From Micavibrio sp. UBA2400 (lineage in GTDB: Bacteria; Pseudomonadota; Alphaproteobacteria; UBA2400), in assembly GCA_002343265.1 (NCBI GenBank), contig DDSC01000018.1:124945-188944 (forward strand): 64,000 bases of DNA. The letters run 5' to 3'. Under the pieces are notes generated by a model. It worked only from the letters and a program-made list of their open reading frames with translations. It was not told the origin of the DNA and searched no databases. The translations under genes were made by a program, and so were the position numbers. The stretch's first letter is position 1, and every line of letters starts with the position of its first letter. Below, piece after piece: positions 5,456-56,720 of this stretch.

Positions 5456-5908
5456 ATGCGCCACATTCTCCTCACTCTCACCCTATTGCTCGCCGCACCC
5501 TACGCGCTGGCTGAGAGTACAGCCGCCCCTTCGTCTGAAGTCCATGTATACAAATCGCCCTATTGCGGTTGCTGCGGCAACTGGGTGGAGTATATGCGCA
5601 AGCAAGGCTTTACTGTGACGGTGGAAGAAAAAGAGGATATGAGCCCGATCAAGCAGAGCCTGAACGTGCCGGATGAAATGCAGAGCTGCCACACCTCCAC
5701 CATCGGCGGTTATGTGATTGAAGGTCATGTACCCGCAGAGGATATCCGCCGCCTGCTAAAGGAAAAACCCGATGCTATCGGTCTGGCCGCCCCGGGTATG
5801 CCACAAACATCACCGGGGATGGATGTGGCAGGCAGCACCGAGGCTTATGACGTGCTGTTATTTAAGGCCGATGGCAGTACGCAGATATTTGCGCACCATA
5901 AACCGTAA
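5456..5908 (+). CDS. DUF411-family periplasmic metal-binding protein (CopG-like)
   Basis: Perfect SD AAGGAGG 6 nt before ATG 5456; signal peptide; conserved YxSPxCGCC motif of DUF411. Confidence 0.6.
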   Translation: MRHILLTLTLLLAAPYALAESTAAPSSEVHVYKSPYCGCCGNWVEYMRKQGFTVTVEEKEDMSPIKQSLNVPDEMQSCHTSTIGGYVIEGHVPAEDIRRLLKEKPDAIGLAAPGMPQTSPGMDVAGSTEAYDVLLFKADGSTQIFAHHKP

Positions 5909-5952
5909 ATGCTGGCTAGACAGGTACTGCGGGCATCTTTACCCTGCAGCGC

Positions 5953-6525: not shown

Positions 6526-6540
6526 GTCAAACCGCGCCGA

Positions 6541-8673
6541 TCAGACCTGTCCCATGGTCTTGATCTTGGCTTTGGCGTGGATTTCGTTTTGCGAGAGCAC
6601 GGCGGTGGCACCACGGAAGCGTTCAACCACCGAGCGCACATAAGGGCGAATAGCCGGGCTGGTGAGCAGCACCGGGGTTTCACCCATCATGGCAAAGCGC
6701 TCGAAGGTTTGGCGCACCGCGTTGATGAAATCCTGCAGACGGGAGGGCGCCATGGCCAGCTGCTTGTCCTCGCCATCGCCAACCAACGATTGGGCAAACT
6801 CGGTTTCCCATTGCGGGCTGAGGGTGACCAGCGGAATGAACCCGGCCTCGCTGGTATATTGGTGACTAAGCTGGCGGGCCAGACGCGCCCGCACATGCTC
6901 GGTAATAGCCGTGACGTTGCGGGTATAACCACACGCCTCGGCAATGCCTTCCAGAATGGCGGGCAGATCGCGGATGCTGACCCGCTCGGCCAGAAGATTT
7001 TGCAAAATACGCTGCAGGGCGCCAATGGTCACCTGTGAGGGGATGACATCAGCCACCAGTTTTTGCTGCGGCTTATCGAGCTCATCAAGCAGCTTTTGCG
7101 TTTCGGCATGGCTCAGCAGCTCGGGCATATTGTCCTTCACCACTTCGGTCAGGTGCGTAGTAATGACGGTGGGCGGATCGACCACGGTATAGCCCTTGAA
7201 CAGCGCCTCATCGCGGAAGGACGGGTCCACCCACATGGCGGGCAGGCCAAAGGTAGGCTCGCGTGTGGCCTCGCCGGGGATGGTAATAGTCTCACCGCGC
7301 GGGTCCATCACCAGTAGCATGGTGGGGCGGATCTCCCCCTTGCCGACTTCAATTTCCTTCACCCGCACCACATAGCCATTGGGCGGGAGCTGCAGATTGT
7401 CCTGAATACGCACCGAAGGCATAATGAAACCCATCTCACCGGCCATCTGGCGGCGCAGACCCTTGATCTGATCGGTCAGGCGCTTGCCCTGCTCGCTGTT
7501 GATGAGCGGCAGCAGGCCGTAGCCCAGCTCCAGCCGGATCAGATCGATGGCCAGTGCCGTGGCAATCGGCTCTTCCGCAACGACCGGTTTCTTCTTGGCG
7601 GCCTCGACCTCGACGGCCTTCTTCTTGGTCTGCTCGGCCTGCACGCGCGAAAAATGCCAAGCGCCATAGCCCGCTGCCGCCGAGAGCAGCAGGAACGGCA
7701 ATTTGGGCATCCCCGGCAGCACGGCCAGAAACAGCATCAGGAACGCCGACAGGCCTAGCGCCTTGGGATAGAGCGTGAGCTGGCTTACCAGGGCTTTTTC
7801 GGCGGACCCCCCCACACCGGCCTTGGACACCAGCAGACCCGCGGCCACCGAGACGATCAGCGCGGGCACCTGCGTAACCAGACCATCACCCACCGTCAGA
7901 CGGGTATAGACATCAAACGCCTGCCCAAGGTCGAGGTCATGGCGCACGGCGCCAATGATGACCCCCATGACAATGTTGATGAAGGTAATGATCAACCCGG
8001 CAATCGCATCACCGCGTACAAACTTGGCAGCACCATCCATCGAGCCGAAAAAGGCGCTTTCGTCTTCCAGCTCTTTGCGCCGGGTACGGGCCTGCTCCTC
8101 GTTGATCAGACCCGCCGAGAGATCCGCATCAATCGCCATCTGCTTGCCGGGCATGGCATCCAAACTGAACCGGGCCGACACTTCAGCAATACGGCCCGAC
8201 CCTTTGGTGATGACAACGAAGTTGACCACCACCAGAATGGCAAACACCACCAGTCCGATAATGAAATCCCCCGCCATGACCAGACCCGAGAAGGCCTCGA
8301 TCACATGTCCCGCCGCGCTGGTGCCGCTATGGCCGTGCGTAAGAATCAGGCGGGTAGAAGCGATATTGAGAGCCAGACGAATGAGAGTGGAGACCAGCAG
8401 AATGGTCGGAAACGAGCTGAACTCCAGAGGCCGTCCGACAAACAGCGCGATCATCAGGATGACGACCGAGAAGGTAATGGAGAAGGCCAGGAAGACATCA
8501 AGCAGCGGGGCCGGGATCGGAAAGATCATGCCCACCACGATGGCAACCACAAACAGCGCCACCAACAGATCGGGACGGCGCGACCAGCCACGCGCCACAC
8601 TTGCGCCGTCCATCAGACTGGCGAAGCTGGCCCCTCCGGTAGGGGGGGGAGTGGTGGTTGGCACGTCAGCCAT
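6541..8673 (-). CDS. flhA: Flagellar biosynthesis protein FlhA
   Basis: 710 aa, N-terminal 8-TM export-gate domain plus cytoplasmic domain; strong resemblance to FlhA. Confidence 0.9.
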   Translation of the reverse strand: MADVPTTTPPPTGGASFASLMDGASVARGWSRRPDLLVALFVVAIVVGMIFPIPAPLLDVFLAFSITFSVVILMIALFVGRPLEFSSFPTILLVSTLIRLALNIASTRLILTHGHSGTSAAGHVIEAFSGLVMAGDFIIGLVVFAILVVVNFVVITKGSGRIAEVSARFSLDAMPGKQMAIDADLSAGLINEEQARTRRKELEDESAFFGSMDGAAKFVRGDAIAGLIITFINIVMGVIIGAVRHDLDLGQAFDVYTRLTVGDGLVTQVPALIVSVAAGLLVSKAGVGGSAEKALVSQLTLYPKALGLSAFLMLFLAVLPGMPKLPFLLLSAAAGYGAWHFSRVQAEQTKKKAVEVEAAKKKPVVAEEPIATALAIDLIRLELGYGLLPLINSEQGKRLTDQIKGLRRQMAGEMGFIMPSVRIQDNLQLPPNGYVVRVKEIEVGKGEIRPTMLLVMDPRGETITIPGEATREPTFGLPAMWVDPSFRDEALFKGYTVVDPPTVITTHLTEVVKDNMPELLSHAETQKLLDELDKPQQKLVADVIPSQVTIGALQRILQNLLAERVSIRDLPAILEGIAEACGYTRNVTAITEHVRARLARQLSHQYTSEAGFIPLVTLSPQWETEFAQSLVGDGEDKQLAMAPSRLQDFINAVRQTFERFAMMGETPVLLTSPAIRPYVRSVVERFRGATAVLSQNEIHAKAKIKTMGQV

Positions 8674-8682
8674 GTATCCTCA

Positions 8683-10071
8683 TCACCCCGCCGCGCGGTC
8701 GGCTGGCTCACCCGCTGCCGGTGGGGGGACTGCCACACCCTCTTCCCCATACTGCTTGAGCTTGTTGCGCAAGGTGCGGATGGAGATGCCCAGAATGTTG
8801 GCGGCGTGCGTGCGGTTGCCCAACGTATGGCTAAGGGTGTCGATAATCAGATCACGCTCGACATCGGCTACCGTCCGCCCCACCAGCGAGGCGGGCGTGG
8901 CCGGACCGGCGGCGGCGGTCGGAGCAGGTGCTGCAGGTAGAGCTGTTATGACGGCAGCCCCTTCCGGGTGCAGATCCGTGCTCAGGATAATGGCCTCTGG
9001 CTCGATCGTGCTGCCGGTGGCCAGCAGCACCGCACGATGCAGGGTGTTCTCAAGCTCACGCACATTGCCGCGCCAGCTATGCCGCAACAACATCTCGCGC
9101 GCAGCTGGACTGATCGCACTGACCTTCACCCCGTTCGCGTCGGCATACTTCTTCATGAAATGCTCGGCCAGCGCCGGAATATCGGCCGGGCGCTCGCGCA
9201 AGGCCGGCAGCTTGAGGTTCATGACATTAAGGCGGTAATAAAGATCCTCGCGGAATTCGCCCTTCTTCACGGCTTCGCCCATGTTGCGGTTGGAGGTGGC
9301 GAGAATACGCACATCCACTTTCACCGGCCCACTGCCGCCTACACGGTCGATCTCGCGCTCTTGCAGGGCGCGTAGCAGTTTGGCCTGCAGGCGCGGATGC
9401 ATCTCGGTCACTTCATCAAGCAGCAGCGTGCCGCCCGAGGCCTCCTCAAACTTGCCAACACGGCGGGCAATCGCGCCCGTAAAGGCACCTTTCTCGTGCC
9501 CGAACAGCTCGGACTCGAGCAGATTTTCAGGAATGGCGGCGCAGTTCAGCGCCACAAAAGTGCCATTCGCCCGTTTGCTGCGCGCGTGCAGGTAGCGCGC
9601 CATCACTTCCTTACCGGTACCACTCTCGCCAGTGATGAGGACCGACGCATCCGACGGCGCAATCTGGTCGGCCAGCTTGAGCACACCCTGCATGGCCGGA
9701 TCCTTGCCGATAAAACTGGTTGTCTCTTCGGCAACGGCGGCCAGCACGGCGCCAATCAGCTCAGCATCAGGGGGCAGCGGAATATATTCCTTGGCTCCGG
9801 CCTTGATGGCGCGCACCGCCGCGCCCGCATCGTTGCCAATACCACAGGCAACCAATGGCTGGGTAAAGCGCTCATCCCTCAAGGCTTGCACCAGACGCGC
9901 CACATCGCAGGTGACATCCACCATGATGAGGTCGCCGCCCTTGCCCGCGCGCAGGGCCGCCAGCGCCCCATCGACATCATCGATATGCGCGACCTTGGCC
10001 CCCTTGGCGGTGGCAATGCGCCCGGCCTCGGCAATATGGCCCTGAAGTTTACCAACAATCAGCAGTCTCAT
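8683..10071 (-). CDS. flbD: Sigma-54-dependent flagellar transcriptional regulator FlbD
   Basis: Receiver-like N-term [12 protein letters not shown]+ sigma-54 activator domain ([29 protein letters not shown]), C-terminal HTH; close match to Caulobacter FlbD. Confidence 0.85.
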
Positions 10072-10091
10072 CTCTACAGCTTTCTTTGAGC

Positions 10092-10406
10092 TTAGGCTTT
10101 GTCACTCTTGACGATTTCGGTCATGGTCACACCTAGGCGGTCTTCGGTCACCACCACTTCACCGCGCGCGACCAGCCGATTATTGACGTAAATATCAATC
10201 GCCTCGCCAACCTTGCGGTCGAGCGGCACGACCGCACCGCGACCCAGCTTGAGCAGTTGATTGACCGGCATGGTCGACTTGCCGAGCACGGCCGTCACCT
10301 GTACCGGAATTTCATAAATCGCCTCCAGATCGCGCTGCACCCCCCCGTCCGCACTTGCGGCGCCGGTCAAATCATTCAAGTTCAGTCCGTCTTTGGTGTC
10401 GCTCAT
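10092..10406 (-). CDS. fliN: Flagellar motor switch protein FliN
   Basis: 104 aa with the SpoA/FliN C-terminal domain ([10 protein letters not shown]...[11 protein letters not shown]). Confidence 0.8.
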
Positions 10407-10420
10407 GCTGGTCTCCTTGG

Positions 10421-11143
10421 TTAGCTTTCAATCTGGGTTGTGGGTGTATCCATCGGCGGTTCCGTAATCTGCGGGGCGCGTGGCCCGCTTTGCAGCACTT
10501 CGGCGACGGCTTTGTCAACCTGCTGCCATAACCGGCTGGTGTCACGCTCAAGGCCGCCATCGGCCCATTCGACCTTGCAATCGGCCGGGCCCAAGGCGCT
10601 ATCGACCAGAAACACCAGCCTGCCGCCCAGCCCGCGTTGTTGCGCCTGCGGCTCCAGTGTTGCAGTCACGGCATCAAGCTGGCTGTCATGCACACGCACA
10701 ACCACGCGCGGCTCGTGGACCAGTTGCGCCAACACGGCCTGTACTGCAGCTTCAATTTCGGTCTGGCCATGACGAGCCACGCTGGCCGGCAGCAGCTTGC
10801 GGGTAATGGTCACCGCGATCTGCAGGACCATGGCGCGGCTCTGCTCAACCCGGGCTATCTGTTCGCTCATCAGCTCGGCAAGACGCTGACCCAGTTTGTC
10901 CAGCAGCTCATTCTGCACCCGCTGTTCGCTGGTCTGCAGCTCAGCCCGTGCTTTGGCCAACCCTTCGGCAAAGCCCTGCGCATGGGCCTGTGTTTTTGCC
11001 GTCTCCAGCTCAGCTTCGGAGAAGGTAGGCGGGGGGGGTGGTTCCGGCTCCAGCGGCTCAGGCGGCAGCTCCACCACCGGCTCAGGCGGTGGCGGCGGCG
11101 CATCGAAGCGCGTGTCGAACAGGAACTTCTGCACGTCCGGCAT
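10421..11143 (-). CDS. FliH-like flagellar assembly protein (FlbE of the alphaproteobacterial fliF operon)
   Basis: Position between fliG and fliN; Pro-rich N-term, coiled-coil and a FliH-like C-terminal region. Confidence 0.5.
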   Translation of the reverse strand: MPDVQKFLFDTRFDAPPPPPEPVVELPPEPLEPEPPPPPTFSEAELETAKTQAHAQGFAEGLAKARAELQTSEQRVQNELLDKLGQRLAELMSEQIARVEQSRAMVLQIAVTITRKLLPASVARHGQTEIEAAVQAVLAQLVHEPRVVVRVHDSQLDAVTATLEPQAQQRGLGGRLVFLVDSALGPADCKVEWADGGLERDTSRLWQQVDKAVAEVLQSGPRAPQITEPPMDTPTTQIES

Positions 11144-11152
11144 AAATGCCCC

Positions 11153-12175
11153 TTAATAGACCAACTCGTCCTTGCCGCCCTCGGCAATGACGATCTCGCC
11201 CTTGGCGGCCAGCTCTTTGGCCAGCCCCACCATATAGGCCTGCGATTCCTCGACCTCGCGCAGACGCACCGGGCCCATACTCTCCATATCTTCCTTGAGG
11301 ATCTTGGCCGCGCGCTCGGACATATTGGAGAAGAACAGGTCCTTCATGCTGTCCGGAGCCGCCTTGAGCGCCAGCGCCAGCTTGGCCTTGTCGACCTGAC
11401 GCAGCAACGTCTGGATGCCGCTGGGGTCGATCTTCTGCAGATCCTCGAAGGTGAACATGAGGGCCTTGATCTTTTCAGCACTGTCGCGGTTGCGCTCTTC
11501 CAGCGCAGCCATCAGGCGGTTCTCGGCATTGCGATCCAGATTGTTGAAAATTTCGGCCATCAGCTCGTGCGCATCCCGCCGCGCGGTCCGGGCCAGATTG
11601 CTCATGAACTCGGTGCGCAGTGTACGCTCGACGTCATCGAGCACATCCTTCTGCACCGCTTCCATACGCAGCATGCGCATGATGACTTCCATGGCAAAAG
11701 TTTCCGGTAGCAGGCCCAGCACGCGGCTGGCATGGTCGGTTTTGATTTTGGACAGCACCACGGCCACGGTCTGCGGATATTCGTTCTTCAGATAATTGGC
11801 GAGCACTTCCTCATTCACGTTGCCGAGCTTGTCCCACATAGTGCGACCCGCCGGACCACGGATTTCTTCCATGATGGTGCCGACTTTATCCTTACCCAAG
11901 ACGCGGCTGAGCAGACGCTCGGTGCTCTCATAGGTACCCACCAGCGAGCCGGTGGAGGACAGCTGATCGGCAAACTCGACAAACAGTTTTTCCATGATGG
12001 CTGACGAGACCGTGCCAAGATTCGCCATCACCTGCGAGATCTCCTTGATCTCTTCATCATCCATATGACTGAATACCTTGAGGGCCTGCTCTTCGCCCAC
12101 CGCCAGCAGCAGCACAGCAGCCTTTTCCGGCCCGGTCAGGGAGCGATAATCCTCGCGTACGCGTCCACCCGCCAT
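11153..12175 (-). CDS. fliG: Flagellar motor switch protein FliG
   Basis: 340 aa; conserved FliG middle and C-terminal domains. Confidence 0.85.
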
Positions 12176-12187
12176 GTTCTCTCCTTA

Positions 12188-13900
12188 TCAGCTCTCGGCG
12201 TAAATCCACTGCCGGATGATGGCCACCGCCTCTTCCGGATGCTTGTCGATAATTTCGCCCATCTTCTTGAGCGAGGAGGCTTTGACCCGGCCATCCACCC
12301 GGTTGATGTCAATCATGCTATCCTGGCCCTCTTCCATCGCCTGCTCGGCAGCTTCCAGCTGCTGAGCAATCGCGCTGCTGGACGGGCCTGACAGGGCCGC
12401 GGCAGCCTTGTTGCTGGCCTCCAAACGCTCAGCCTCACCCTTCACATCCAGCAGGGTACGGATCATCGGGCGGACAATCACGAGGAGCACCAGCACGGCG
12501 AGCAGCAACATCCCCAACTTCTCCGCCATGCGCAGGATTTCGGGATTGCTGGTCAATTTTTCAACCACACTGGCCGCACCACTGACTTCCGGTTCGGCAG
12601 CAAATTGCAGATTGACGACTTCCACACTGTCACCACGATCGGCATCATACCCCACCGCCGAACGCACCAGCGCGGCGTACTGATCGAGCTGCTCTTTGGT
12701 GCGGGCCTCATAAACCTGCGTGGCCGCATCCCCCTCGCCTTCAGTTTTATATGTACCGTCCACTAGAACGGCGACCGTCACACGCTTGACTGTGCCCGGC
12801 AGGCGGGTCTGGCTTTGCACGGTTTTGCTGATCTCGAAGTTGGTTGTTTCCTCGGTGCGTGTGGTCTTGTTGGTTGGCACCGTGCTGGGAGTAGAGGTGG
12901 CTGGCTTACCCGCCGCATCGGGCAGATTGCTCTGTACGGATACGGCTGAATCACCACCGGCGGTGGTGACTTCATTGGTCTGACTGTTCTCACTGCTGGA
13001 TTGGGTGGAGCGAGCGACCTGACTTTCCGGATCATAGGTTTCGCTCTGCGTGGTGATGCTGTCCATATCCAGATCAACACTCACCTGTGCGCGCACCTTG
13101 TCAAACCCGACGGTACGACCAAGAATTTCTTCCACCCGGGCCGACAGCCGCTGCTCAATGCTGATGCGCTGCTCTTCCGCACTGGCCTGCTGCGCGCTCA
13201 CCGTATCGGTGCCGCCGCCCGATGCCAGCAGATTGCCGCGCGAATCCACAATCGCAACGCGGCCCGGGTCCAGCTGCGGCACGGCAGCAGAGACGAGGTG
13301 CTGAATGGCGTTGATCTGCTCACGCCCGAGTTGGCCCCGCGCTTCGAGGAACACGCTGGCCCGCGCCTGCTGTGCGTCGCGCGCAAACAGTTCGCGGCGC
13401 GGCAAAACCAGCTGCACCCGCGCATTCCCAACGCCTTGCATGCTGCGAATGGAGCGGGCGATCTCACCCTCCAGCGCGCGCTGCTGATTGATGCTCTGCA
13501 GGAAGCTGGTGGTGCCAAAACCTTCCGGCTGGTTGAAAATTTCGTAACCGACACCGCCGCCGGCGGGAATGCCCTCTTGCGCCAACAGCATCTTGACCCG
13601 GCCAGCCTGCTCTTCCGGCACAGAAATACGCGACCCATCCGAAGACGCTTCATAGGGAATGTTGAGCTGTTCGAGTCGCTGCACAATGGCGCCGCCATCG
13701 GCAGCACTCAGGCCGCTGTACACGGTAGACATGCTTGCCCCGCCCATGCGGGCAATAATCACGATCAGGAACAGCAGCGTAGCCAGCGCGACACCGCCAA
13801 GCGCCGCCAGACGCACCGGGCCCAGACTTTTAAGTGTTTGCAGAAAACTGTTCATACGCGCGCAGAGCCCCGAAAAGTTAATGCCATCGAGTCGAAACAA
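12188..13900 (-). CDS. fliF: Flagellar M-ring protein FliF (true start possibly the internal Met at ~13855)
   Basis: 570 aa, N- and C-terminal TM helices, YscJ/FliF domain, Ser/Thr-rich linker. Confidence 0.85.
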   Translation of the reverse strand: MFRLDGINFSGLCARMNSFLQTLKSLGPVRLAALGGVALATLLFLIVIIARMGGASMSTVYSGLSAADGGAIVQRLEQLNIPYEASSDGSRISVPEEQAGRVKMLLAQEGIPAGGGVGYEIFNQPEGFGTTSFLQSINQQRALEGEIARSIRSMQGVGNARVQLVLPRRELFARDAQQARASVFLEARGQLGREQINAIQHLVSAAVPQLDPGRVAIVDSRGNLLASGGGTDTVSAQQASAEEQRISIEQRLSARVEEILGRTVGFDKVRAQVSVDLDMDSITTQSETYDPESQVARSTQSSSENSQTNEVTTAGGDSAVSVQSNLPDAAGKPATSTPSTVPTNKTTRTEETTNFEISKTVQSQTRLPGTVKRVTVAVLVDGTYKTEGEGDAATQVYEARTKEQLDQYAALVRSAVGYDADRGDSVEVVNLQFAAEPEVSGAASVVEKLTSNPEILRMAEKLGMLLLAVLVLLVIVRPMIRTLLDVKGEAERLEASNKAAAALSGPSSSAIAQQLEAAEQAMEEGQDSMIDINRVDGRVKASSLKKMGEIIDKHPEEAVAIIRQWIYAES

Positions 13901-32339: not shown

Positions 32340-32421
32340 AGCCCGGATGTAGTATTAATCACGACTTTCCCTTACTGACTAGTCCCGTGCCGGTTAAAAA
32401 ATGATGGAGCAAAAACCTACC

Positions 32422-33207
32422 ATGCGAATAGTGACCTGGAACATCAACAGCGTTCGCAAGCGCCTGCCGCTGCTACTGCAAGTGATGCAGGATTTACGGC
32501 CTGATATCGTCTGTTTGCAGGAAATCAAGGGCGAGACGCATGTCTTTCCGAGCGAGGCTTTGCAAAATGCAGGGTACTCCCATCAATTCGTGCGTGGCAT
32601 GAAAGCATACAACGGCGTTGCAATTCTATCGCGGGTGCCCCTGTCCGGACAGACCGCCACCAACTGGGTCGGGCGTGATGATGCGCGCCATATTGCGGCA
32701 CTTTTGCCCGGTGGTATTGAGCTGCATAACTTCTACGTTCCAGCTGGCGGCGATATTCCCGATCGCACCCAGAATGAGAAATTTGCCCATAAGCTTGATT
32801 TTATGGCTGAAATGGCAGTCTGGGCCCCGCGCGGGAAGGATAAGCCGCGTCTGCTGGTCGGTGATCTGAATGTAGCTCCGCTCCCGGAGGACGTGTGGTC
32901 GCATAAACAATTGCTTGATGTTGTCTCGCACACGCCGGTTGAAGTGGAGGCGCTGAGCCGCATACAGGAAGCCGGGGGCTGGACCGACGCTTTACGTCAG
33001 CGCTTTCCCATTCCGGAACGACTTTACTCATGGTGGAGCTATCGCGCTGCTGATTGGGCAGCATCGAATCGCGGCCGCCGGCTCGACCATATCTGGCTAT
33101 CGGCTCCGCTGGCCGGTACCTTGCGCGATGCGGGCATCTACAAGAAAGCACGCGGTTGGGCCGAGGCGTCCGATCATGCCCCTGTGTGGGTTGATCTGGC
33201 TTTATAA
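32422..33207 (+). CDS. xth: Exodeoxyribonuclease III
   Basis: MRIVTWNINSVR..., EEP-family nuclease motifs (CLQE, GDLNVAP, SDHAPV). Confidence 0.8.
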   Translation: MRIVTWNINSVRKRLPLLLQVMQDLRPDIVCLQEIKGETHVFPSEALQNAGYSHQFVRGMKAYNGVAILSRVPLSGQTATNWVGRDDARHIAALLPGGIELHNFYVPAGGDIPDRTQNEKFAHKLDFMAEMAVWAPRGKDKPRLLVGDLNVAPLPEDVWSHKQLLDVVSHTPVEVEALSRIQEAGGWTDALRQRFPIPERLYSWWSYRAADWAASNRGRRLDHIWLSAPLAGTLRDAGIYKKARGWAEASDHAPVWVDLAL

Positions 33208-34394
33208 GCAAGCCAGAGCGGCAGCGCGCAAAGCAACGCCAAAGCCAGAGGATAGACCTCGGGAGCAACAAACCAGCTCACAGTGAAATCATCCTGTGCA
33301 TAGCGGCGCCAAAGAAACAGGTGGCTGGACTCGGGCACAGTCAGCAGTTGCGGTACGCCAGAGAGGGCCATGCCGACGATCAGGGTCCGGCGAAAGGGCT
33401 GTGGGTGTGGTAGGTTTTCGCTCTGCTGCCACAGAATCAGGGCGCTGAGCAACAGGACCGGAAAATAGTAGATCCAGCCCAACGGCGTGAGCAGCAACAT
33501 GAGCGGACAACACAGAGCGATGCCTAGCGAAAAACTTGCAGGGTGTTGTCTTTGCTGGTTCAACCACACCACCGCCACCAGACCAAAAGAGAGAGTCAGG
33601 GGCAACAGAGCGGGCAGAGGCATGCCCCCAGTGTAGCGTTGCACAACACCATACAGAGAGGCGTTCCAATTGAGGCCACCGGCGCTATAAGTTGTGACAA
33701 CATCGAGCCAGTCGCGATGATTTGCAACGCCAAATAGGAGCAGGCCAAGCCCCATTCCAACGGCCCAGACGGCAGCACCATAGATCAAAATGGCCCATCG
33801 TCGCTGCAGCAGCAACCAGACGAAAATCAACCCAACAAAAAGTTTGAGTAACAGGGCAAGGCCCAGCAGAACCCCAGCCCGGCGGACCTGCCCTTGCTCG
33901 GCGGCGTGCCAATACAAAGCCAGCAGCGCGAACAGCAACAGGCCCATCTGGCCGATCTGCAGATTGGCCAGCACCGGATAATAAACACACAGCACGATCA
34001 CAAAACCCGCGCGTGCCGCCGCCTGACGCAGCAGGGTAAAGCCCGCCAGCAGCGCCAGCCCCACCTGCCCAGCACACCAGACATAATAGGCCGTACGAAG
34101 ATCAAGCGGTACCAGCGGTAACGTCAGCAGTGTGAGAACCGGCGGGTTCAGGTTATGCGATAGCGCCAGAGAGTCGGGGAGAAACTGGATACCACCGGGC
34201 ACATCCGGTGCATAATAGAAGGTATGGTACAGCCCCAGCTGGTGGGTAAAGGCCTGGGCGCTGGCCACGAACAACAGAAAATCCGTTCCCTGCGGCACGC
34301 CTTGTGCGGCATTGAACCAGACCCCGGTGCCAAGCCCGAGCAAAGCGCAAAGCGCCAATGGGGCGAGCCAGCGGGCGCTAAGCCAAGGCAACAT
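33174..34394 (-). CDS. Polytopic membrane protein, GT-C-type glycosyltransferase (DUF2029/GT87-like)
   Basis: 406 aa with ~10 TM helices, N-terminal DFLLFVASAQAF...Y motif region reminiscent of DUF2029/PMT_2 enzymes; from memory of the family, moderate confidence. Confidence 0.4.
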   Translation of the reverse strand: MLPWLSARWLAPLALCALLGLGTGVWFNAAQGVPQGTDFLLFVASAQAFTHQLGLYHTFYYAPDVPGGIQFLPDSLALSHNLNPPVLTLLTLPLVPLDLRTAYYVWCAGQVGLALLAGFTLLRQAAARAGFVIVLCVYYPVLANLQIGQMGLLLFALLALYWHAAEQGQVRRAGVLLGLALLLKLFVGLIFVWLLLQRRWAILIYGAAVWAVGMGLGLLLFGVANHRDWLDVVTTYSAGGLNWNASLYGVVQRYTGGMPLPALLPLTLSFGLVAVVWLNQQRQHPASFSLGIALCCPLMLLLTPLGWIYYFPVLLLSALILWQQSENLPHPQPFRRTLIVGMALSGVPQLLTVPESSHLFLWRRYAQDDFTVSWFVAPEVYPLALALLCALPLWLAYKARSTHTGA

Positions 34395-34487: not shown

Positions 34488-34562
34488 TGGTGGGCACGAC
34501 AGGGATCGAACCTGTGACCACTACGATGTCAACGTAGTGCTCTACCGCTGAGCTACGTGCCC
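34488..34562 (-). tRNA. tRNA-Val (anticodon GAC), CCA encoded
   Basis: Minus strand reads GGGCACGTAGCTCAGCGGTAGAGCACTACGTTGACATCGTAGTGGTCACAGGTTCGATCCCTGTCGTGCCCACCA: cloverleaf with D-loop AGCTCAGCGGTAGAGC, anticodon loop TTGACAT, T-loop GGTTCGATCC. Confidence 0.8.
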
Positions 34563-47539: not shown

Positions 47540-47709
47540 GTTTTGGCGCCCCTCGGGAAGATCAGGTGGAAGACTGGCTGACCCGAGAAAAATTCGTTAC
47601 GGATGCTGCCTTTCGGCCCTGTCCGGGTTGGCGACTCGCCCGTCCAACCAGCCTTCCGAGGCTGGATATAGCAGAAATCAGCCGCGAGGGTGAAGAAAAA
47701 TATCCAAGT

Positions 47710-49123: not shown

Positions 49124-49224
49124 ACTCCCCTTGGTCTGTTGATGTAGTTTTTATCGGCTCATTTTATCACTGCGCGATGGACTGAGCCATGAAAAACGCT
49201 GCTGCACTGCACAGCGACGCAGCG

Positions 49225-50163
49225 TCAGCCAGCCTTTTTCGAAGGCGGTTCAATCGCGGAGGGGATCACGCCGGTCTGATTGCCGACTGTTTCGGCGACG
49301 CAGACCCATTCCAGTGTTTCCATCCCCTTCTTGACCGCGCGGGCGCAAGACTGGTCAAGTGTGACGATCGACTTGTCCGGATTGTTCTGCTTGCGCAGAA
49401 ACTTGGTGGCGATGATGACCAGATCCTCGCACAGCTTTTCATCGATGGTGATGCCGAAATGCTGTTCGTATTTCGGCCGCAAACCTTTGATGATGCGAAT
49501 GGTGGCTTCTACATTCGGCTCTTCGAGCAGCACCTTCTGAAAGCGGCGATCCATCGCGGGGTCGGCAGCCACATACTGGCGGAACTCGTCCACCGTGGTA
49601 GCACCAATCACCTGCAAATCACCCACGGTGAGGTAGGGCTTGAGAATGTCCGATACGCCCGAGGCAGCGGTAGCTTTACAGGTTGGCATCATGGTGTGCA
49701 TTTCGTCGATACACAGGATGATGGGCGGAAATTTCTTGCTGGCGTTGCGCTCGCCGCACCCCTTGATGAAGGGGATCAGGCGGCCCTCAAACTCACCGCG
49801 GGTAGTGGTGCCCGCCGCCATGGTGGGAAACTCCAGCTCGATTACGCGGGCATCCTTGAGCATCTTGGGCACCTTGCCCTCGGCCACCGCACCGGCAAAG
49901 CCGGTGAACAACGCAGTCTTACCCGAACCGGCCGGGCCGCAAACCGCCACGTTACTGCGCCCGCGCTGTAGTAGAATGGTGATGACCTGATCAATCTCGG
50001 CATCGCGACCAATGACCGGGTCGAACTTGCCAAGGCGGGCCAGTTCGGTCAGATCGCGGCAGTATTTCTGGATGAGCGGCTCAAAAACGTCATCTGGCAC
50101 TTTAAAGGCCAGATCGCGGAAACTCTTGGGCGCATCAGGCGCGGGAGAGGCAGCTTCACTCAT
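49225..50163 (-). CDS. Stand-alone AAA+ ATPase equivalent to ClpA/ClpB nucleotide-binding domain 1 (no N-domain, no D2)
   Basis: Near-collinear with ClpB D1: VIGRD.EI..VI.IL.RR, VCGPAGSGKTAL, IILCIDEMHTM, GATTVDEFRQY, DRRFQKV, sensor region; only 312 aa. Confidence 0.65.
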   Translation of the reverse strand: MSEAASPAPDAPKSFRDLAFKVPDDVFEPLIQKYCRDLTELARLGKFDPVIGRDAEIDQVITILLQRGRSNVAVCGPAGSGKTALFTGFAGAVAEGKVPKMLKDARVIELEFPTMAAGTTTRGEFEGRLIPFIKGCGERNASKKFPPIILCIDEMHTMMPTCKATAASGVSDILKPYLTVGDLQVIGATTVDEFRQYVAADPAMDRRFQKVLLEEPNVEATIRIIKGLRPKYEQHFGITIDEKLCEDLVIIATKFLRKQNNPDKSIVTLDQSCARAVKKGMETLEWVCVAETVGNQTGVIPSAIEPPSKKAG

Positions 50164-50211: not shown

Positions 50212-50949
50212 CTAAAAGTTAAGTTTATTAAAGATTTTGCGCGGTAAGTGCAAAATCGCCAGCATGATCGGCCACCAGAACCACGGATAATAAAGTGTTC
50301 CGCCGCGGGCGGCGCGCTGCCAGCAGACTTTGGCCAGCCCCTCCGGCACGCCCAGCGGCAGGGGTGGATTTTTTTTGCCCCAGGTCATGGGGGTATCCAT
50401 CACCCCGGGTTTGACCAGAAGTACAGGCACCTGAAAGGCCGACAAATGCGCGGCCAGACCTTGGGCGTAAGCGGCCAGCCCCGCCTTGCTGGCTCCATAC
50501 TGGTAATTTTTCTTGCGGCCACGATCCCCCGCGACCGAGCCGAGCAGCACAATCGCTCCGGCTTTCTGTTGCTCAAACAACGGCAGCAGCGCATTGCAGG
50601 TCAGCATCGCGCTGGTGAAGTTGCTGTTGACCATCTGTGTACATAATACGGCATCCGCCCGCATCGCCGCTTCCTCCGGCATGGTACCAATCGCCCAATA
50701 GAGGCTGACCGGGGCTTTGGCCTGTGCTGCCATAGCCACCAGTGCGCCGCGGTGTTGCTCATTCATGGCGTCGAACAGCGCACAGGTAACACTCGCCGCG
50801 CCGCGCAGTCGCAAATCCTGCTCCTGCGTGGCCAGCTCCTGCGGGTTACGTCCGGCCAGAATAAGATGCGCCCCGTGCTTGGCCGCTTCACGGGCAAAGG
50901 CCTTGGCCAGCGCCGAGCCAGCGCCAAGAATGATCCAGGTTCCGGTCAT
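50212..50949 (-). CDS. DprE2-like short-chain dehydrogenase (decaprenylphospho-2'-keto-ribose reductase homologue)
   Basis: SDR fold (GAGSALAKAF, YGASKAG) and C-terminal ...LHLPRKIFNKLNF matching the DprE2 tail ...LRHIPRSIFRKLPI; 4-nt overlap with the dprE1-like gene. Confidence 0.7.
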   Translation of the reverse strand: MTGTWIILGAGSALAKAFAREAAKHGAHLILAGRNPQELATQEQDLRLRGAASVTCALFDAMNEQHRGALVAMAAQAKAPVSLYWAIGTMPEEAAMRADAVLCTQMVNSNFTSAMLTCNALLPLFEQQKAGAIVLLGSVAGDRGRKKNYQYGASKAGLAAYAQGLAAHLSAFQVPVLLVKPGVMDTPMTWGKKNPPLPLGVPEGLAKVCWQRAARGGTLYYPWFWWPIMLAILHLPRKIFNKLNF

Positions 50950-52286
50950 GCGGTCCTCCGTAAGCCAAGGCGCTGCGCCATGCGTGAGGTGAATTTTTCC
51001 TGCGGGTCCAGCTCGGCCAGGACCCGTTTGAAATCCGGCAGACGTGGGTACATAGCCGCCAGATCATCGGCCGTTAACGTGCTGTCCTTGGCCAGATAAA
51101 CGCGCCCACCCACATCGCGGGTAAATTTATTCAGCGTGGACAAGAACTCCGGTGTGCCGGGGCTGTTGGGAAAATCCAGTGCCAGAACATAGCCGGGCAT
51201 AGCGTAGCTCAGATAATTTTCATCCTCCTGACCCAAGCGCTTGAGTACCGCCAGAAAGGAAGCGCGGGCACTCTGACTAATCATCTCCAGCAGCTTGGGC
51301 AGGGCTTGAGGGGCGGCTGCATCGGGAATAACACACTGGAACTGGTGAAAGCCGCGCTTACCATACATCCGGTTCCAATGCTGAATGCGATCAAGCGGGT
51401 AAAAAAACTGCGCGTGCGGCACGATAGAGAGTGTCGGGTTGGCGCGGCCGACCCACGCATAGCGCACTTTATTGAACAGACGGATGCTGAGCGGGTTCAG
51501 GGCAAAGCTGGGCAGATCAAGCGGAAATACCGGGCCACCATCAAGCCTGACCGGGGCGTTGCCCGGCGCGATATGCGCGCGCTCAAAAATACTCCGCCCC
51601 AGCGCCGCGCCACCGGACAGGGCATCCAGCCATGCGACAGCATAGTCATCGCGCTCAGGCTTGCTGGTGAACGCCGCCAGCAGGTCCTCCAGATTTTTAC
51701 AGCGGTGCTGGGTTACCGCTACACAGCTACCCGCCGCCGGTGTAAGCTGCAGTGCCGCCTGCACGATGATGCCGGTCAGACCGATGCCACCCAGAGTCGC
51801 AAAAAATGCGGGCGCATTCTCGGTGCGGGAAAAGCGGCACACGCGGCCATCAGCGGTCAGCACCTCAACCCACAGGATATGGCGGGACAAGGCCCCGGCA
51901 ACGGGATGGTTCTTGCCATGTACGTTATTGGCAATGGCCCCACCCAAAGTGACAAAGCTGGTGCCGGGGGCGACGGGAATCAGCCAGCCGCGCGGCAAAA
52001 AGGTTTCGAGAATGGTTTTGAAACTTACCCCGGCCTGCGCGACCAGCACACCACTCTGGGGATCAAAGCTTACCAGCTGATCGAGCTGGTCGGTCAGAAT
52101 GGCGCGGGCAGCCTCGGTCGGCAGGGCGGCATCGCCATAACTACGACCTAGGCCATGAGCCAAAATCGCCGGGCTGTTCTGTACGGCCTCCTGCACTGCG
52201 CTGAGTGTATGCGGGCGCGCCGCGCTAGTAGCCGCGCGGCTGGTGCGGCCCCATCCGGTCAGCGTGGTCTGGCCCCAGAGGATCAT
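50946..52286 (-). CDS. DprE1-like FAD-dependent oxidase (decaprenylphosphoryl-beta-D-ribose 2'-oxidase homologue)
   Basis: Blocks LTGWGRT, GLGRSYGD, VTLGGAIANNVHGKNH, GGIGLTGII, FYPLD..WNRMYG..GFHQFQCV.P, GGRVYLAKDS, MAQRLGL track M. tuberculosis DprE1 along its whole length. Confidence 0.75.
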   Translation of the reverse strand: MILWGQTTLTGWGRTSRAATSAARPHTLSAVQEAVQNSPAILAHGLGRSYGDAALPTEAARAILTDQLDQLVSFDPQSGVLVAQAGVSFKTILETFLPRGWLIPVAPGTSFVTLGGAIANNVHGKNHPVAGALSRHILWVEVLTADGRVCRFSRTENAPAFFATLGGIGLTGIIVQAALQLTPAAGSCVAVTQHRCKNLEDLLAAFTSKPERDDYAVAWLDALSGGAALGRSIFERAHIAPGNAPVRLDGGPVFPLDLPSFALNPLSIRLFNKVRYAWVGRANPTLSIVPHAQFFYPLDRIQHWNRMYGKRGFHQFQCVIPDAAAPQALPKLLEMISQSARASFLAVLKRLGQEDENYLSYAMPGYVLALDFPNSPGTPEFLSTLNKFTRDVGGRVYLAKDSTLTADDLAAMYPRLPDFKRVLAELDPQEKFTSRMAQRLGLRRTA

Positions 52287-53170
52287 GCGTACATCAACCA
52301 GATGAAGGTGAGAACCCAGCCCAGTCCAGTTGCGATCATGGGTTTGTCAGTCAGAATGACGGCGGTAGGTGAGCCTGAGCGCTCTTTGACAATCGTCAGC
52401 TGCAAATAACGCAGCATACCGTAAATGACAAACGGAGCGGTATAGAACAGCGTGTCCGTACCGAGGCGCTCCTGTACTTCCGGATCGGTTGTATAGATGA
52501 GATAACTGACCAGCGCTGCACCAAGCGTAATAGCCAACACGACATCCAGAAACGGCCGCGAATAGCCATCGAGCGAGCGGCGATGGTCGGTCCCCAGCGT
52601 CTTGACAATATCATCCCGCCGCTTGGCAAAGCCAAGGAACAGCGCCAGCAAGCCGGTGAGGATCACTATCCACGCGCTTGGAGTGATGCCGATCAGAGCC
52701 GCGCCAGCCTCGACACGCAGCACAAAGCCCAAAGCAATACACATCACGTCTATGACAGCGATATGCTTAAGGCGCAGCGAGTAAGCGATATTCAATACCG
52801 CATAGACCAGCAAATAGATAAAAAACGCGGGCAGCAGACACCACGCGCCCATCAGCCCACCCGCCGCCAGTGCCAGCATGAGGGTGATCGCTACCGGCAG
52901 AGTCACCGTCCCTGCCGCCAGCGGGCGCTTGCATTTGGTGGGGTGGGCGCGATCACGCTCGACATCGCGCCAGTCGTTCAAGATGTAGATGGCGCTCGCT
53001 ACGAGGCTCCAGCACAGGACGCCAAGGGCGACCAGCAGCACGCTCTCGGTTGAAACGACCGAGGGGGTGAAAAACAGTGGCGCGGCAACAAACCCGCTCT
53101 TGATCCAATGATGCGGACGAATGAGCTTGATGACCGGCGGCACCGGGAGCGGCGAAATAAGCGTACCCAT
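52283..53170 (-). CDS. UbiA-family decaprenyl-phosphate 5-phosphoribosyltransferase homologue (Rv3806c-like)
   Basis: 8-9 TM UbiA fold with NDWRDVERDRAHPTKCKRPLAAG (NDxxDxxxD + basic patch) characteristic of DPPR synthases; overlaps the dprE1-like gene by 4 nt. Confidence 0.7.
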   Translation of the reverse strand: MGTLISPLPVPPVIKLIRPHHWIKSGFVAAPLFFTPSVVSTESVLLVALGVLCWSLVASAIYILNDWRDVERDRAHPTKCKRPLAAGTVTLPVAITLMLALAAGGLMGAWCLLPAFFIYLLVYAVLNIAYSLRLKHIAVIDVMCIALGFVLRVEAGAALIGITPSAWIVILTGLLALFLGFAKRRDDIVKTLGTDHRRSLDGYSRPFLDVVLAITLGAALVSYLIYTTDPEVQERLGTDTLFYTAPFVIYGMLRYLQLTIVKERSGSPTAVILTDKPMIATGLGWVLTFIWLMYA

Positions 53171-53263
53171 GCCAGTGTGTTAAGCGATTTGCCGCGTTTC
53201 GGCTAGTCATCTGTCATCGTTTTCCTCTATCAGCCACGCCAAAAGATAGCTAAACTGCATCGC

Positions 53264-53590
53264 ATGATGCGCATGGCACTCGCTATCCTTCTGGCTGTTT
53301 TTCTGCTTTCGGCCGGGCCAGCTCTGGCTGGACCAGCGGCGCATTGCGCCCCCTCCCCGGCGTCTAAGCTGGCGCTTACGCACCAGACGAGCGAGAGTCA
53401 TGTGTCGTCGCTCGTACACCCCTGCGCCGGCCAGACGATGAACTGCCAGAGCGGATGCTGCGCGGCCCTCTTCGCCCAGGTATCGCCGCCCGTGCGACCA
53501 GTGGCACGTATGGTGGCGATCACGCTCCCTCTACGCACTGGGGTCGTGCACGCCCACAGCTACCCGCTGCTGCGCCCACCTAATGTGTAA
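53264..53590 (+). CDS. Small secreted Cys/His-containing hypothetical protein
   Basis: Signal peptide MMRMALAILLAVFLLSAGPALA; no clear family. Confidence 0.3.
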   Translation: MMRMALAILLAVFLLSAGPALAGPAAHCAPSPASKLALTHQTSESHVSSLVHPCAGQTMNCQSGCCAALFAQVSPPVRPVARMVAITLPLRTGVVHAHSYPLLRPPNV

Positions 53591-53647
53591 GCTTACTTCC
53601 TCTTCAATCTTGTAAAATCTGAACATCTCATTGGAAGGAGTTGGACC

Positions 53648-54154
53648 ATGTCCATGACTCATTATATGGAACTGCTGGCCGCCAACCAGCCGTGGAATCT
53701 GTTGTTGTTTATGGCGATCCCGGTCATTCTGGCCGAGACTGTTGCCATCACCGAGCTGTATCTGCTGTTTACCCGTGCCCGCACCGGCTGGGTGAAAACC
53801 CTTAGCCGTGCTGCAGGCATCCTCGGGGGTGTCTACTTTGCCGGAGTGATGGTGTATCTGCTCAAGACCGCAGTGCTGCCGATCACTCAGGCGGGGGCGT
53901 GGCGCGGCCCTGTTGATGTGATCGCCGTGGGTGGCTACCTGCTCAGTGGCATTGCCCTGATCTGCATAGCCTTGCAGGAGCTGCGGGTGATTGATCGTAA
54001 CCGGACCGACGATCAACGCCTGATCCGCCACGCGGTTTATGTTGGTGCATTCCTGATTTTGGCTCATGTGGCCATGATTGCCGGCATGCTTGACCCGGCG
54101 GTATTTGGCTATCAGGCCGCCGCCTCGACCGACATGATGCATGGCAACCACTAA
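53648..54154 (+). CDS. Hypothetical 4-TM membrane protein
   Basis: 168 aa complete ORF, four hydrophobic helices. Confidence 0.4.
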   Translation: MSMTHYMELLAANQPWNLLLFMAIPVILAETVAITELYLLFTRARTGWVKTLSRAAGILGGVYFAGVMVYLLKTAVLPITQAGAWRGPVDVIAVGGYLLSGIALICIALQELRVIDRNRTDDQRLIRHAVYVGAFLILAHVAMIAGMLDPAVFGYQAAASTDMMHGNH

Positions 54155-55844: not shown

Positions 55845-56720
55845 ATGATGGCGAATAACAAGGGAGAGCAGCCGAAATTTGTTAGATTTTTCGCCCCACT
55901 TCAAGAGGTTTTACTTAGTCTTGGTGGCTCTGGTTCACCCGATGAGGCATATGCCGGTATAATTGAGAAACTGGCAATTCCGGAAGAAGAACAACTGGAG
56001 TTGCTGAAATCCGGTCAGACTAGGGTATATAACCAAATTCATTGGGCGCGATTTTATTTAGCAAAAAGTGGATTTATCGATTCTTCTAAGCGTGGTGTAT
56101 GGAGTCTGACAGAGCGTGGACTAAAAGAAAAAATTACACCTGAGCTTGCGCGTGAGATTTTTACAACTTGCCAGTCGCGGTTTGCTAGCAAAGATAAGGC
56201 GAGCAATACCTTTCAAGAGATTGAAATTTCTTCGAAAGGCGAGGTGGGCGAATCTGATCTTGATTATAAGGCTAAACTTCTCTCTACTCTCAAAAAACTT
56301 CCTCCCGCAGGATTTGAACGATTTTGCCAGAGAATGTTACGTGAGGCAGGATTTGTGCAAGTCTCCGTCACCGGACGAAGTGGGGATGGTGGCATTGACG
56401 GGTATGGAATCCTACAAATTAACCCTCTAGTCTCATTCAGGGTTTTGTTTCAGTGCAAAAAATATGACGGATCTGTTTCTACAGGCACGGTTAGAGACTT
56501 TCGTGGAGCAATGGCGGGGCGAGCCGATAAGGGTATTATCATTACAACAGGAACCTTTACAGCCGACGCAAAGAAAGAATCACAAAGAGATGGTGCTGCC
56601 CCAATAGAGCTAATTGATGGTGAGAGACTAACAACTATGTGCGAATCTCTTGAATTAGGTCTAAGGCCAGTTACAAGTTTCGAAATTGTGCCGGAGTTTT
56701 TTGAAGAATTTGACGAATAA
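55845..56720 (+). CDS. mrr: Mrr-family type IV restriction endonuclease (Mrr_N winged helix + Mrr catalytic domain), low-GC
   Basis: N-terminal Mrr_N (QIHWARFYLAKSGFI), C-terminal PD-(D/E)xK-like block (GGIDGYG...FQCKKY); local GC ~43%. Confidence 0.7.
   Translation: MMANNKGEQPKFVRFFAPLQEVLLSLGGSGSPDEAYAGIIEKLAIPEEEQLELLKSGQTRVYNQIHWARFYLAKSGFIDSSKRGVWSLTERGLKEKITPELAREIFTTCQSRFASKDKASNTFQEIEISSKGEVGESDLDYKAKLLSTLKKLPPAGFERFCQRMLREAGFVQVSVTGRSGDGGIDGYGILQINPLVSFRVLFQCKKYDGSVSTGTVRDFRGAMAGRADKGIIITTGTFTADAKKESQRDGAAPIELIDGERLTTMCESLELGLRPVTSFEIVPEFFEEFDE

Follow-up and report, generated by a model that had tools for sequence, protein, structure and literature searches.

We examined a 64,000-nucleotide stretch of the Micavibrio sp. 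UBA2400 genome (contig DDSC01000018.1; "the window" below, with positions counted from its first letter), in which three adjacent minus-strand open reading frames (ORFs) between positions 50,212 and 53,170 encode proteins resembling the mycobacterial enzymes of decaprenyl-phospho-arabinose (DPA) synthesis. In order of transcription they are predicted to specify a UbiA-fold polyprenyl-phosphate 5-phosphoribosyltransferase (PRTase; 295 amino acids), a DprE1-like flavin adenine dinucleotide (FAD)-dependent oxidase (446 amino acids) and a DprE2-like short-chain dehydrogenase/reductase (SDR; 245 amino acids). At both junctions the stop codon overlaps the next start codon in a 4-nt ATGA, in the context ...cgcATGAnc..., a GGAGG Shine-Dalgarno sequence lies 5 nt ahead of the start codon of the third gene, and the GC content of the operon, overall and at third codon positions (GC3), is similar to that of the neighbouring genes. 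An earlier reading of the same DNA, made without database searches (the sequence-only reading), had placed three translationally coupled genes with 4-nt overlaps here, and its coordinates and both overlaps were borne out.

The UbiA-type protein matches Pfam UbiA (69 bits) and scores 269.7 bits against the NCBIfam model for decaprenyl-phosphate phosphoribosyltransferase (NF008977), over the curated equivalog cutoff of 234, in a full-length family alignment of residues 14-294 to model positions 6-288 of 297. Models for quinone, heme O and chlorophyll prenyltransferases reach at most 30 bits on the same protein, against 270 for the PRTase model, and its only PDB matches are two entries for Rv3806c of Mycobacterium tuberculosis (8j8j, E = 3.9e-35, residues 10-288 versus 14-294). 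When the functional residues of Rv3806c were taken from the paper on its structure with bound phosphoribosyl pyrophosphate (PRPP) (PMC10994848), 11 of the 14 residues that bind PRPP, Mg or the 5'-phosphate proved to be identical (R22, K28, Y70, N73, D74, D77, D81, K87, R90, Y138 and K143), and the remaining three show the conservative replacements Q135 to N, Y157 to F and K208 to R. The identical positions take in the whole NDxxDxxxD Mg2+ motif, Lys28 and Tyr70 at the 5'-phosphate, and Arg22, Lys87, Arg90 and Lys143 at the pyrophosphate. The phosphoribose-binding residues of Rv3806c, including Lys28 and Tyr70, distinguish the PRTase and are not conserved in UbiA prenyltransferases (PMC10994848). 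Because these residues are retained in the window, the protein does not group with the ubiquinone or menaquinone prenyltransferases; it belongs to the PRTase family and is predicted to act as a polyprenyl-phosphate 5-phosphoribosyltransferase. It is of the short form, without a fused HAD phosphatase domain, and is the counterpart of Rv3806c, NoeC and PsPA7_6246, with identities of 57.5% to the short UbiA protein of an Azospirillum sp. cluster, 31% to the M. tuberculosis counterpart and 30% to the Noe protein of Rhizobium sp. IRBG74.

The product of the middle gene scores 390.1 bits against the NCBIfam DprE1 model (NF053785), with the next family at 71 bits and the alditol and lactone oxidase models no higher. 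Its best PDB match is M. tuberculosis DprE1 (E = 1.3e-76, residues 7-442 versus 11-460 of 461), followed by xylitol oxidase at 4e-16. The two-domain FAD_binding_4 fold is kept together with the active-site residues Lys418, His132, Lys134, Gln334/336 and Tyr60; W230 and Y415 are also kept, and there are substitutions of C387 to A, Y314 to F and N385 to V (M. tuberculosis DprE1 numbering). Cys387 is a drug-binding residue that is dispensable for catalysis and naturally missing in some mycobacteria. Because this target of the benzothiazinones is replaced by Ala, covalent inhibitors of the benzothiazinone type would not be expected to act on the DprE1 of the window. The oxidase is 36% identical to M. 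tuberculosis DprE1, 40% to NoeH of IRBG74 and 47-50% to Rhodospirillales homologues, and to judge from its sequence it is a divergent DprE1 homologue, not a strict equivalog.

The third protein is a Rossmann-type SDR with the catalytic YxxxK (Y151/K155). M. tuberculosis DprE2 is its best PDB match (E = 3.9e-20, residues 5-243 versus 12-252 of 254; next match 7e-14), and the alignment takes in the C-terminal tail, the DprE2-type C-terminal helix. Among NCBIfam models the generic PRK07102 scores higher (200.8 bits, cutoff 267) than the DprE2 model (128.5 bits), and the protein is 30% identical to M. tuberculosis DprE2 and 31% to the Noe protein of IRBG74.

These results agree with much of the sequence-only reading. 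Its identification of the UbiA-type protein as an Rv3806c homologue with the NDxxDxxxD motif is supported alike by the equivalog score, the PDB matches and the residues; the full-length PDB alignment upholds its claim of a DprE1 match over the whole protein; and the DprE2 match does extend into the C-terminal tail, to residue 252 of 254. It had also named two outcomes that would speak against it, namely best matches of the oxidase to alditol or gulonolactone oxidases and clustering of the UbiA protein with ubiquinone or menaquinone prenyltransferases. What was found is a best match to DprE1 in the one case and, in the other, a match to the PRTase equivalog with the PRPP residues kept.

We propose that the trio probably forms the cytoplasmic-face core of a pathway to a polyprenyl-phospho-D-arabinofuranose (D-Araf) donor for periplasmic glycosylation. 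The UbiA-type PRTase would join PRPP to polyprenyl phosphate, expected to be undecaprenyl phosphate as in Gram-negative bacteria, and give polyprenyl-phospho-ribose 5-phosphate, from which a phosphatase encoded outside the trio would remove the 5'-phosphate. The DprE1-like flavoenzyme would then oxidise C2' to a 2-keto intermediate, and the DprE2-like SDR would use NAD(P)H to reduce this to the arabino configuration. Finally, the lipid-linked Araf would be flipped into the periplasm, in which a GT-C glycosyltransferase would use it to modify a glycan or protein of the envelope, such as lipopolysaccharide (LPS)/O-antigen, exopolysaccharide or pilin. In this scheme we infer the identity of the lipid, the arabino stereochemistry and the identities of the phosphatase, flippase, transferase and acceptor. 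Homology, conservation of substrate-binding and catalytic residues, coupling in an operon and conservation of the module across phyla are direct observations. For instance, the best PDB match of each of the three proteins is its M. tuberculosis counterpart, aligned over nearly the whole length, and in relatives the module adjoins GtrA, LPG_synthase_TM, PAP2-like, PMT_2 GT-C and polysaccharide genes. The logic of the pathway is established for Gram-negative O antigens, with DprE1 and DprE2 homologues in the Araf-adding systems surveyed (PMC11127046). The conversion of polyprenyl phosphate and PRPP through polyprenyl-phospho-ribose to polyprenyl-phospho-D-Araf, as proposed in the sequence-only reading, thus holds under hidden Markov model, PDB, residue and synteny comparisons.

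Several observations weigh against this proposal. The oxidase falls short of the DprE1 equivalog cutoff of 500 bits (NF053785) and the SDR lies under that for DprE2 (250 bits, NF053786); both are divergent, at 30-36% identity to the M. tuberculosis enzymes, and the stereochemical outcome of the SDR reductase cannot be told from its sequence. Under strict membership, only the PRTase passes its equivalog threshold and the DprE1- and DprE2-like proteins stay below theirs, with every testable catalytic feature kept in the aligned residues; the shortfall of the oxidase may reflect its divergence from the characterised actinobacterial enzymes. In addition, the usual partner genes are missing. No phosphatase, flippase-like gene (GtrA, MATE or PF03706 protein) or GT-C adjoins the operon, and tblastn searches of the 64-kb window with GtrA, LPG_synthase_TM, DUF212 PAP2-like, PMT_2 GT-C, NoeP and other cluster hypotheticals, DUF2339 and HAD domain queries returned nothing below E = 0.07 except the UbiA gene itself. 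In particular, a dedicated flippase (MATE, GtrA/SMR-like or PF03706) has no Pfam match among the called genes of the window and the GtrA and LPG_synthase_TM searches were empty; likewise, a 5'-phosphoribose phosphatase of the HAD/PRP or PAP2 type was not found, the UbiA protein being without a HAD domain and the window without a DUF212/PAP2 homologue. The Pfam and tblastn results confirm the earlier remark that no phosphatase or arabinosyltransferase gene is adjacent. The accompanying description of the operon as complete stands for the three core genes of donor synthesis and fails for the phosphatase, flippase-like gene and GT-C that are usual in relatives. In Pseudomonas aeruginosa, the PRTase, DprE1 and DprE2 genes were essential and the GtrA-like gene was not, with the host ArnE/F appearing to compensate (bioRxiv 10.1101/2020.04.19.049825). 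Because of this dispensability, a bare trio could, by analogy, plausibly function if the host supplies phosphatase and flippase from elsewhere.

The two closest relatives of the operon, on contigs L022 and L023 (DprE1 70% and 58% identical), share its synteny from comM to dnaX, its 4-nt ATGA overlaps and an AAA+ gene that follows it. Both carry, directly upstream of the UbiA gene and on the same strand, a gene for a polytopic DUF2339 protein of 884-888 amino acids (6418-9084 in L022, with a gap of 27 nt, and 5972-8626 in L023) that is absent from the window and may be an unrecognised pathway partner. The next relatives, with DprE1 identities of 47-50%, are found in Skermanella, Azospirillum sp., Belnapia and one metagenome contig. 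Where the upstream region is intact, the Rhodospirillales gene order is [HAD-]UbiA - LPG_synthase_TM - DprE1 - DprE2; the Belnapia locus is without the LPG_synthase_TM gene, and at the metagenome locus a UbiA gene was not found, only a short LPG_synthase_TM ORF standing ahead of DprE1. GT2, GT4, Wzx or Wzy genes occur near the Azospirillum, Belnapia and metagenome loci, and not near that of Skermanella. In Rhodospirillales an LPG_synthase_TM (PF03706) gene recurs between those for UbiA and DprE1, and in a Chromatiales metagenome-assembled genome one lies next to the cluster (L024, L025, L005 and L027). The family is named after the transmembrane region of the lysylphosphatidylglycerol synthase MprF, and its members at these loci are candidate flippases for lipid-linked pentose, of a type other than GtrA and MATE, which are those described to date.

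Beyond this group, tblastn located DprE1 homologues on 65 PLSDB plasmids, 34 of them from Rhizobium and the others from Sinorhizobium, Cereibacter, Salipiger, Ruegeria, Agrobacterium, Azospirillum and further hosts; a nucleotide search of plasmids with the operon itself gave no match. Three plasmid loci that were opened have the order UbiA(+HAD) - GtrA - DprE1 - DprE2 - membrane hypothetical, except that in Cereibacter a further hypothetical gene separates GtrA from DprE1; one of the three is the noeCHOP-type cluster adjoining nodABC on the IRBG74 symbiosis plasmid. A single-sequence scan of genome contigs returned distant loci only (25-43% identity), in Thiomicrorhabdus, Legionella, Chromatiales, Caulobacterales, Litorimonas, Acidobacteriaceae, Planctomycetota, Ktedonobacteraceae and Fimbriimonadaceae, so that DprE1 homologues reach the Gammaproteobacteria, Acidobacteriota, Planctomycetota, Chloroflexota and Armatimonadota. 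In a representative library at 50% identity they make up 1,632 clusters (E<=1e-30). DprE2 lies immediately downstream of DprE1 in most loci examined, and DprE1-DprE2 fusions of 673-708 amino acids account for six of the top 150 representatives (P0176, P0215, P0226, P0266, P0280 and P0282). Because more than 20 loci from numerous phyla share the DprE1-DprE2 adjacency, usually with UbiA as well, the trio is not a chance arrangement.

What surrounds the module varies. In Thiomicrorhabdus, for example, a PAP2-like DUF212 gene and a PMT_2 GT-C gene come after UbiA, and in Caulobacterales, Litorimonas and a gammaproteobacterium DprE2 has an NAD-epimerase gene and an amine-oxidase-like gene downstream of it; among these latter loci a downstream GtrA was confirmed only in Caulobacterales. 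At the locus of Kumtagia ephedrae (L015, 9146-14360), DprE2 is missing and the gene after DprE1 encodes a large protein with a class-III aminotransferase domain, an arrangement suggesting that the 2-keto intermediate is transaminated to give a lipid-linked 2-amino-pentofuranose.

The sequence-only reading had held that outside actinobacteria the pathway is known from only a few special cases. The 1,632 clusters, the 65 plasmids and the many phyla show that view to be out of date, as does the published finding that polyprenyl-phospho-pentofuranose systems derived from PRPP are widespread in Gram-negative and Gram-positive glycans (Kelly et al. 2024, PNAS, PMC11127046). It had also left to a phylogeny whether the genes group with the rhizobial noe genes. 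In a rough neighbour-joining tree of DprE1, built without bootstraps and without the P. aeruginosa PA7 and Azorhizobium proteins, the window clade is sister to the Rhodospirillales clade and apart from both the rhizobial Noe branch and M. tuberculosis.

The features of the window that bear on the operon are collected in Table 1. On one side it is flanked by the AAA+ gene, a Glu/Leu dehydrogenase gene, the signal recognition particle (SRP) RNA gene, dnaX, ybaB, recR and rmuC, and on the other by a small secreted Cys/His-rich ORF, DUF6803, comM and an Mrr nuclease gene. The AAA+ gene starts 48 nt past the DprE2 stop codon, with no terminator-like site in between in a consensus scan, and is possibly a fourth co-transcribed gene. 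The first such site on the same strand downstream of the operon lies directly 3' of it; the search was a consensus scan only and found as many sites as expected from shuffled sequence. The AAA+ protein scores about 240 bits against the D1 region of the NCBIfam ClpB/ClpV/ClpA models, far under their cutoffs. It is 84-88% identical in the same position in L022 and L023 only, where it is better conserved than the adjoining DprE genes, and is absent from all other DprE loci examined. A role as a component of the system is thus unsupported, the gene being kept only where the whole neighbourhood is syntenic. Upstream of the operon, the presumed promoter region contained no sigma-70 consensus site in a promoter scan and no Rfam family.

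Table 1. Features in the window (positions from the first letter of the window; functions are predictions)
Feature	Position	Strand	Remarks
UbiA-fold polyprenyl-phosphate 5-phosphoribosyltransferase (PRTase)	52283..53170	-	Short form; counterpart of Rv3806c, NoeC and PsPA7_6246
DprE1-like FAD-dependent polyprenyl-phospho-ribofuranose 2'-oxidase	50946..52286	-	Pfam FAD_binding_4 and ALO; NCBIfam; PDB
DprE2-like SDR, polyprenyl-phospho-2-keto-pentofuranose reductase	50212..50949	-	Pfam adh_short; NCBIfam; PDB
Stand-alone ClpA/ClpB D1-like AAA+ protein	49225..50163	-	312 amino acids; Pfam AAA_lid_9 and AAA
Terminator-like hairpin and T-run	49197..49216	-	3' of the AAA+ gene
Intergenic region, presumed promoter region	53171..53647		476 bp; between the operon and the divergent orf108/DUF6803 genes
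Cys/His-rich ORF (orf108)	53264..53590	+	Uncalled, 108 amino acids
DUF6803 gene	53648..54154	+	Four predicted transmembrane segments
Mrr-type restriction endonuclease	55845..56720	+	Mrr_N and Mrr_cat; adjoins comM
Small bacterial SRP RNA	47564..47658	-	50.8 bits; upstream of dnaX
tRNA-Val(GAC)	34488..34562	-	Adjoins the GT87 gene
GT87 (PimE/AftC family) GT-C glycosyltransferase	33174..34394	-	406 amino acids; Pfam GT87 84.8 bits; 16 kb from the operon
EEP/Exo_endo_phos gene	32401..33207		Exodeoxyribonuclease III; beside the GT87 gene
Flagellar block	2555..13900	-	fliF to ParA/FleN-like
Type IV pilin-like gene	5953..6525	+	Between a DUF411 gene and flhA; GFNLIEAAIVLG prepilin motif; weak Pfam PilS and Bundlin

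The product of the small ORF has a clear signal peptide followed by a mature part rich in Cys and His, and together with the DUF6803 protein, likewise encoded divergently from the operon, it may form a metal-related periplasmic pair. A role of the four-segment DUF6803 protein as a GtrA analogue is unsupported; it shows no Pfam GtrA similarity at E<=1 and is absent from all other DprE loci examined. The Mrr-type gene is absent from L022 and L023, and the GC content is locally low around it (0.524 for 56-58 kb). The EEP gene was considered as the missing phosphatase and rejected as exodeoxyribonuclease III.

The host is a flagellated, uncultured alphaproteobacterium resembling the Rhodospirillales, to judge from its flagellar genes and its phosphoglycerate kinase, and the sequence-only reading was right in calling it a flagellated alphaproteobacterium. 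The flagellar block comprises fliF, fliG, fliH, fliN, a sigma-54 activator (FlbD-like), flhA, flhF and a ParA/FleN-like gene. One uncultured relative has a phosphoglycerate kinase 82% identical to that of the window, and the best matches from named organisms are those of Magnetospirillum, Pelagibius and Telmatospirillum, at 65-68%.

The only transferase dependent on polyprenyl-phosphate sugars that was found in the window is the GT87 protein. Its AlphaFold2 model is of high confidence (pLDDT 90.5) and has PimE (9dm5) as best Foldseek match, with TM-scores of 0.64-0.68; it contains the invariant Asp38 in its first loop. The GT87 family also includes the arabinofuranosyltransferase AftC. In a collection of 5.8 billion proteins there are 43 homologues, the nearest at 44% identity (49% in a MAFFT alignment), and there are none on plasmids. 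Against a link to the operon, homologues are few, the gene has a conserved xth-marR-def-fmt-truA neighbourhood of its own, independent of the operon, and no GT87 homologue adjoins any DprE locus examined; among the GT87 matches listed, none comes from the 522-kb contig of the closest relative carrying the trio. The partner GT-C genes of relatives have no tblastn homologue in the window. As a user of the donor, the GT87 protein is a speculative, family-level candidate, a lead and not a finding.

Alternative interpretations differ from the proposed D-Araf donor pathway in chemistry, in destination or in whether the genes act at all. The generic Pfam assignments (UbiA, FAD_binding_4/ALO and adh_short) would allow an aromatic or quinone prenyltransferase accompanied by an oxidase and SDR acting on a small-molecule polyol or lactone. 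The NCBIfam scores, which are lopsided for the PRTase and the oxidase alike, the equally lopsided PDB ranking and the conserved PRPP 5'-phosphate and pyrophosphate ligands effectively refute that reading, whose probability we regard as negligible. It is closer to the proposed pathway to suppose that the lipid-linked pentofuranose is something other than D-Araf, such as polyprenyl-phospho-ribofuranose, the 2-keto sugar, a different epimer or a further modified product. Diversification around DprE1 in relatives is in keeping with this, with an aminotransferase in place of DprE2 in Kumtagia and the NAD-epimerase and amine-oxidase-like genes elsewhere; different epimerases are also known to give ribofuranose or xylofuranose (Kelly et al., PMC11127046), and the SDR is so distant from M. 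tuberculosis DprE2 that the generic PRK07102 model scores higher. The window, however, has the canonical DprE1 and DprE2 pair without extra tailoring genes, the SDR aligns end to end with DprE2, its best solved relative, tail included, and homologues of the pair accompany the Araf glycans surveyed by Kelly et al. (PMC11127046), and we consider a product other than D-Araf decidedly unlikely.

As to destination, the donor might serve specifically for O-arabinosylation of a type IV pilin, for which the group IV strains of P. aeruginosa provide a precedent (bioRxiv 10.1101/2020.04.19.049825). The window does contain a pilin-like gene, with a GFNLIE prepilin motif, weak PilS/Bundlin similarity and a Ser/Thr/Pro-rich C-terminal part, but it lies 44 kb from the operon and has no TfpW-like GT-C beside it, whereas the P. 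aeruginosa transferase adjoins pilA; with no partner homologue in the window either, such a specific use appears very unlikely. The same lack of partner genes, including the LPG_synthase_TM gene that stands between UbiA and DprE1 in Rhodospirillales relatives and the DUF2339 gene upstream in the two closest ones, could mean that the trio is an orphan remnant with little or no current function, its flippase and transferase genes lost. Yet all three ORFs are intact with their catalytic residues kept, the ATGA overlaps and gene order are held across lineages diverged to 58-70% protein identity, GC and GC3 are like those of the surrounding genes, and partner genes may lie elsewhere in the genome, outside the window, all of which makes a remnant highly improbable. 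A last possibility concerns the use of the donor within the D-Araf pathway that we propose. The operon lies among dnaX-ybaB-recR, comM and the ClpB-D1-like AAA gene, with synteny kept down to 58% protein identity. It could be a core-genome feature passed on vertically, rather than belonging to a variable island for O-antigen or symbiosis, and could feed a constitutive envelope structure, for instance an arabinan-like or Araf-capped glycolipid or glycan, built by the PimE/AftC-family GT87 protein or by another unrecognised transferase such as the DUF2339 protein encoded next to the operon in L022 and L023. This joint reading is offered tentatively, as unlikely; if it is true, a Gram-negative bacterium would be using lipid-linked Araf in a manner resembling that of mycobacteria.

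Comparison with described systems places the D-Araf operon of the window in a wider context. The mycobacterial DPA pathway (Rv3806c, Rv3807c, DprE1 Rv3790, DprE2 Rv3791, Rv3789 and Emb/Aft) uses the same three core enzyme families, with full-length alignments and shared active sites, and M. tuberculosis DprE1 and DprE2 were co-purified as a complex (PMC9993113); their counterparts in the window are encoded by adjacent genes. In contrast to the mycobacterial pathway, the window proteins are only 30-36% identical, no Rv3807c-type PAP2 phosphatase, Rv3789/GtrA or Emb/Aft gene lies nearby, Cys387 of DprE1 is Ala, undecaprenyl phosphate is the expected lipid in place of decaprenyl phosphate (PMC11127046), and the PRTase shares an operon with DprE1 and DprE2. 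The three-component pentofuranose systems begin with the same PRPP-dependent UbiA-type polyprenyl-phosphoribose synthase, and auxiliary epimerases set the pentose (Kelly et al. 2024, PMC11127046). Their prototype has a HAD phosphatase (PRP) domain fused to the synthase and a MATE flippase and GT136 GT-C in an O-antigen cluster, whereas the window has none of these and housekeeping genes instead. With flippase, GT-C and phosphatase not encoded with the synthase, the window falls outside the three-component definition.

The group IV pilin cluster of P. aeruginosa (PsPA7_6245-6251 with TfpW), compared here by description and not by sequence, contains the same PRTase/DprE1/DprE2 trio. It also encodes a phosphatase and a GtrA-like protein, with a dedicated GT-C beside pilA. 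The rhizobial noeCHOP cluster (Rhizobium sp. IRBG74 and Azorhizobium) is alphaproteobacterial and has the same UbiA - DprE1 - DprE2 order. In IRBG74 it includes GtrA and a 401-amino-acid membrane protein and adjoins nodABC on a symbiosis plasmid, whereas the operon of the window is chromosomal and without nod genes; identities to IRBG74 (DprE1 40%, UbiA 30%, DprE2 31%) and the separate tree branch likewise set the two apart. The Rhodospirillales clusters of Skermanella, Azospirillum and Belnapia contain the nearest DprE1 proteins outside the window clade, as its sister group, and the UbiA protein of Azospirillum is of the same short type. They differ in the PF03706 gene between UbiA and DprE1, frequent HAD fusion and adjacent GT2/GT4/Wzx/Wzy genes, all of which the window lacks. 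What is distinctive about the window is modest: a minimal architecture, a PRTase in one operon with the epimerase pair, and a stable core-genome location.

The operon opens no new question. The logic of its pathway has already been published, and clusters homologous to it are common among cultivable rhizobia, Cereibacter and Azospirillum, in which the acceptor would be far easier to study than in the uncultured host. It adds one more, fairly divergent proteobacterial lineage that is predicted to make lipid-linked D-arabinofuranose, and its stripped-down trio, standing by itself among housekeeping genes, is in line with the finding in P. aeruginosa that the essential core consists of these three activities.

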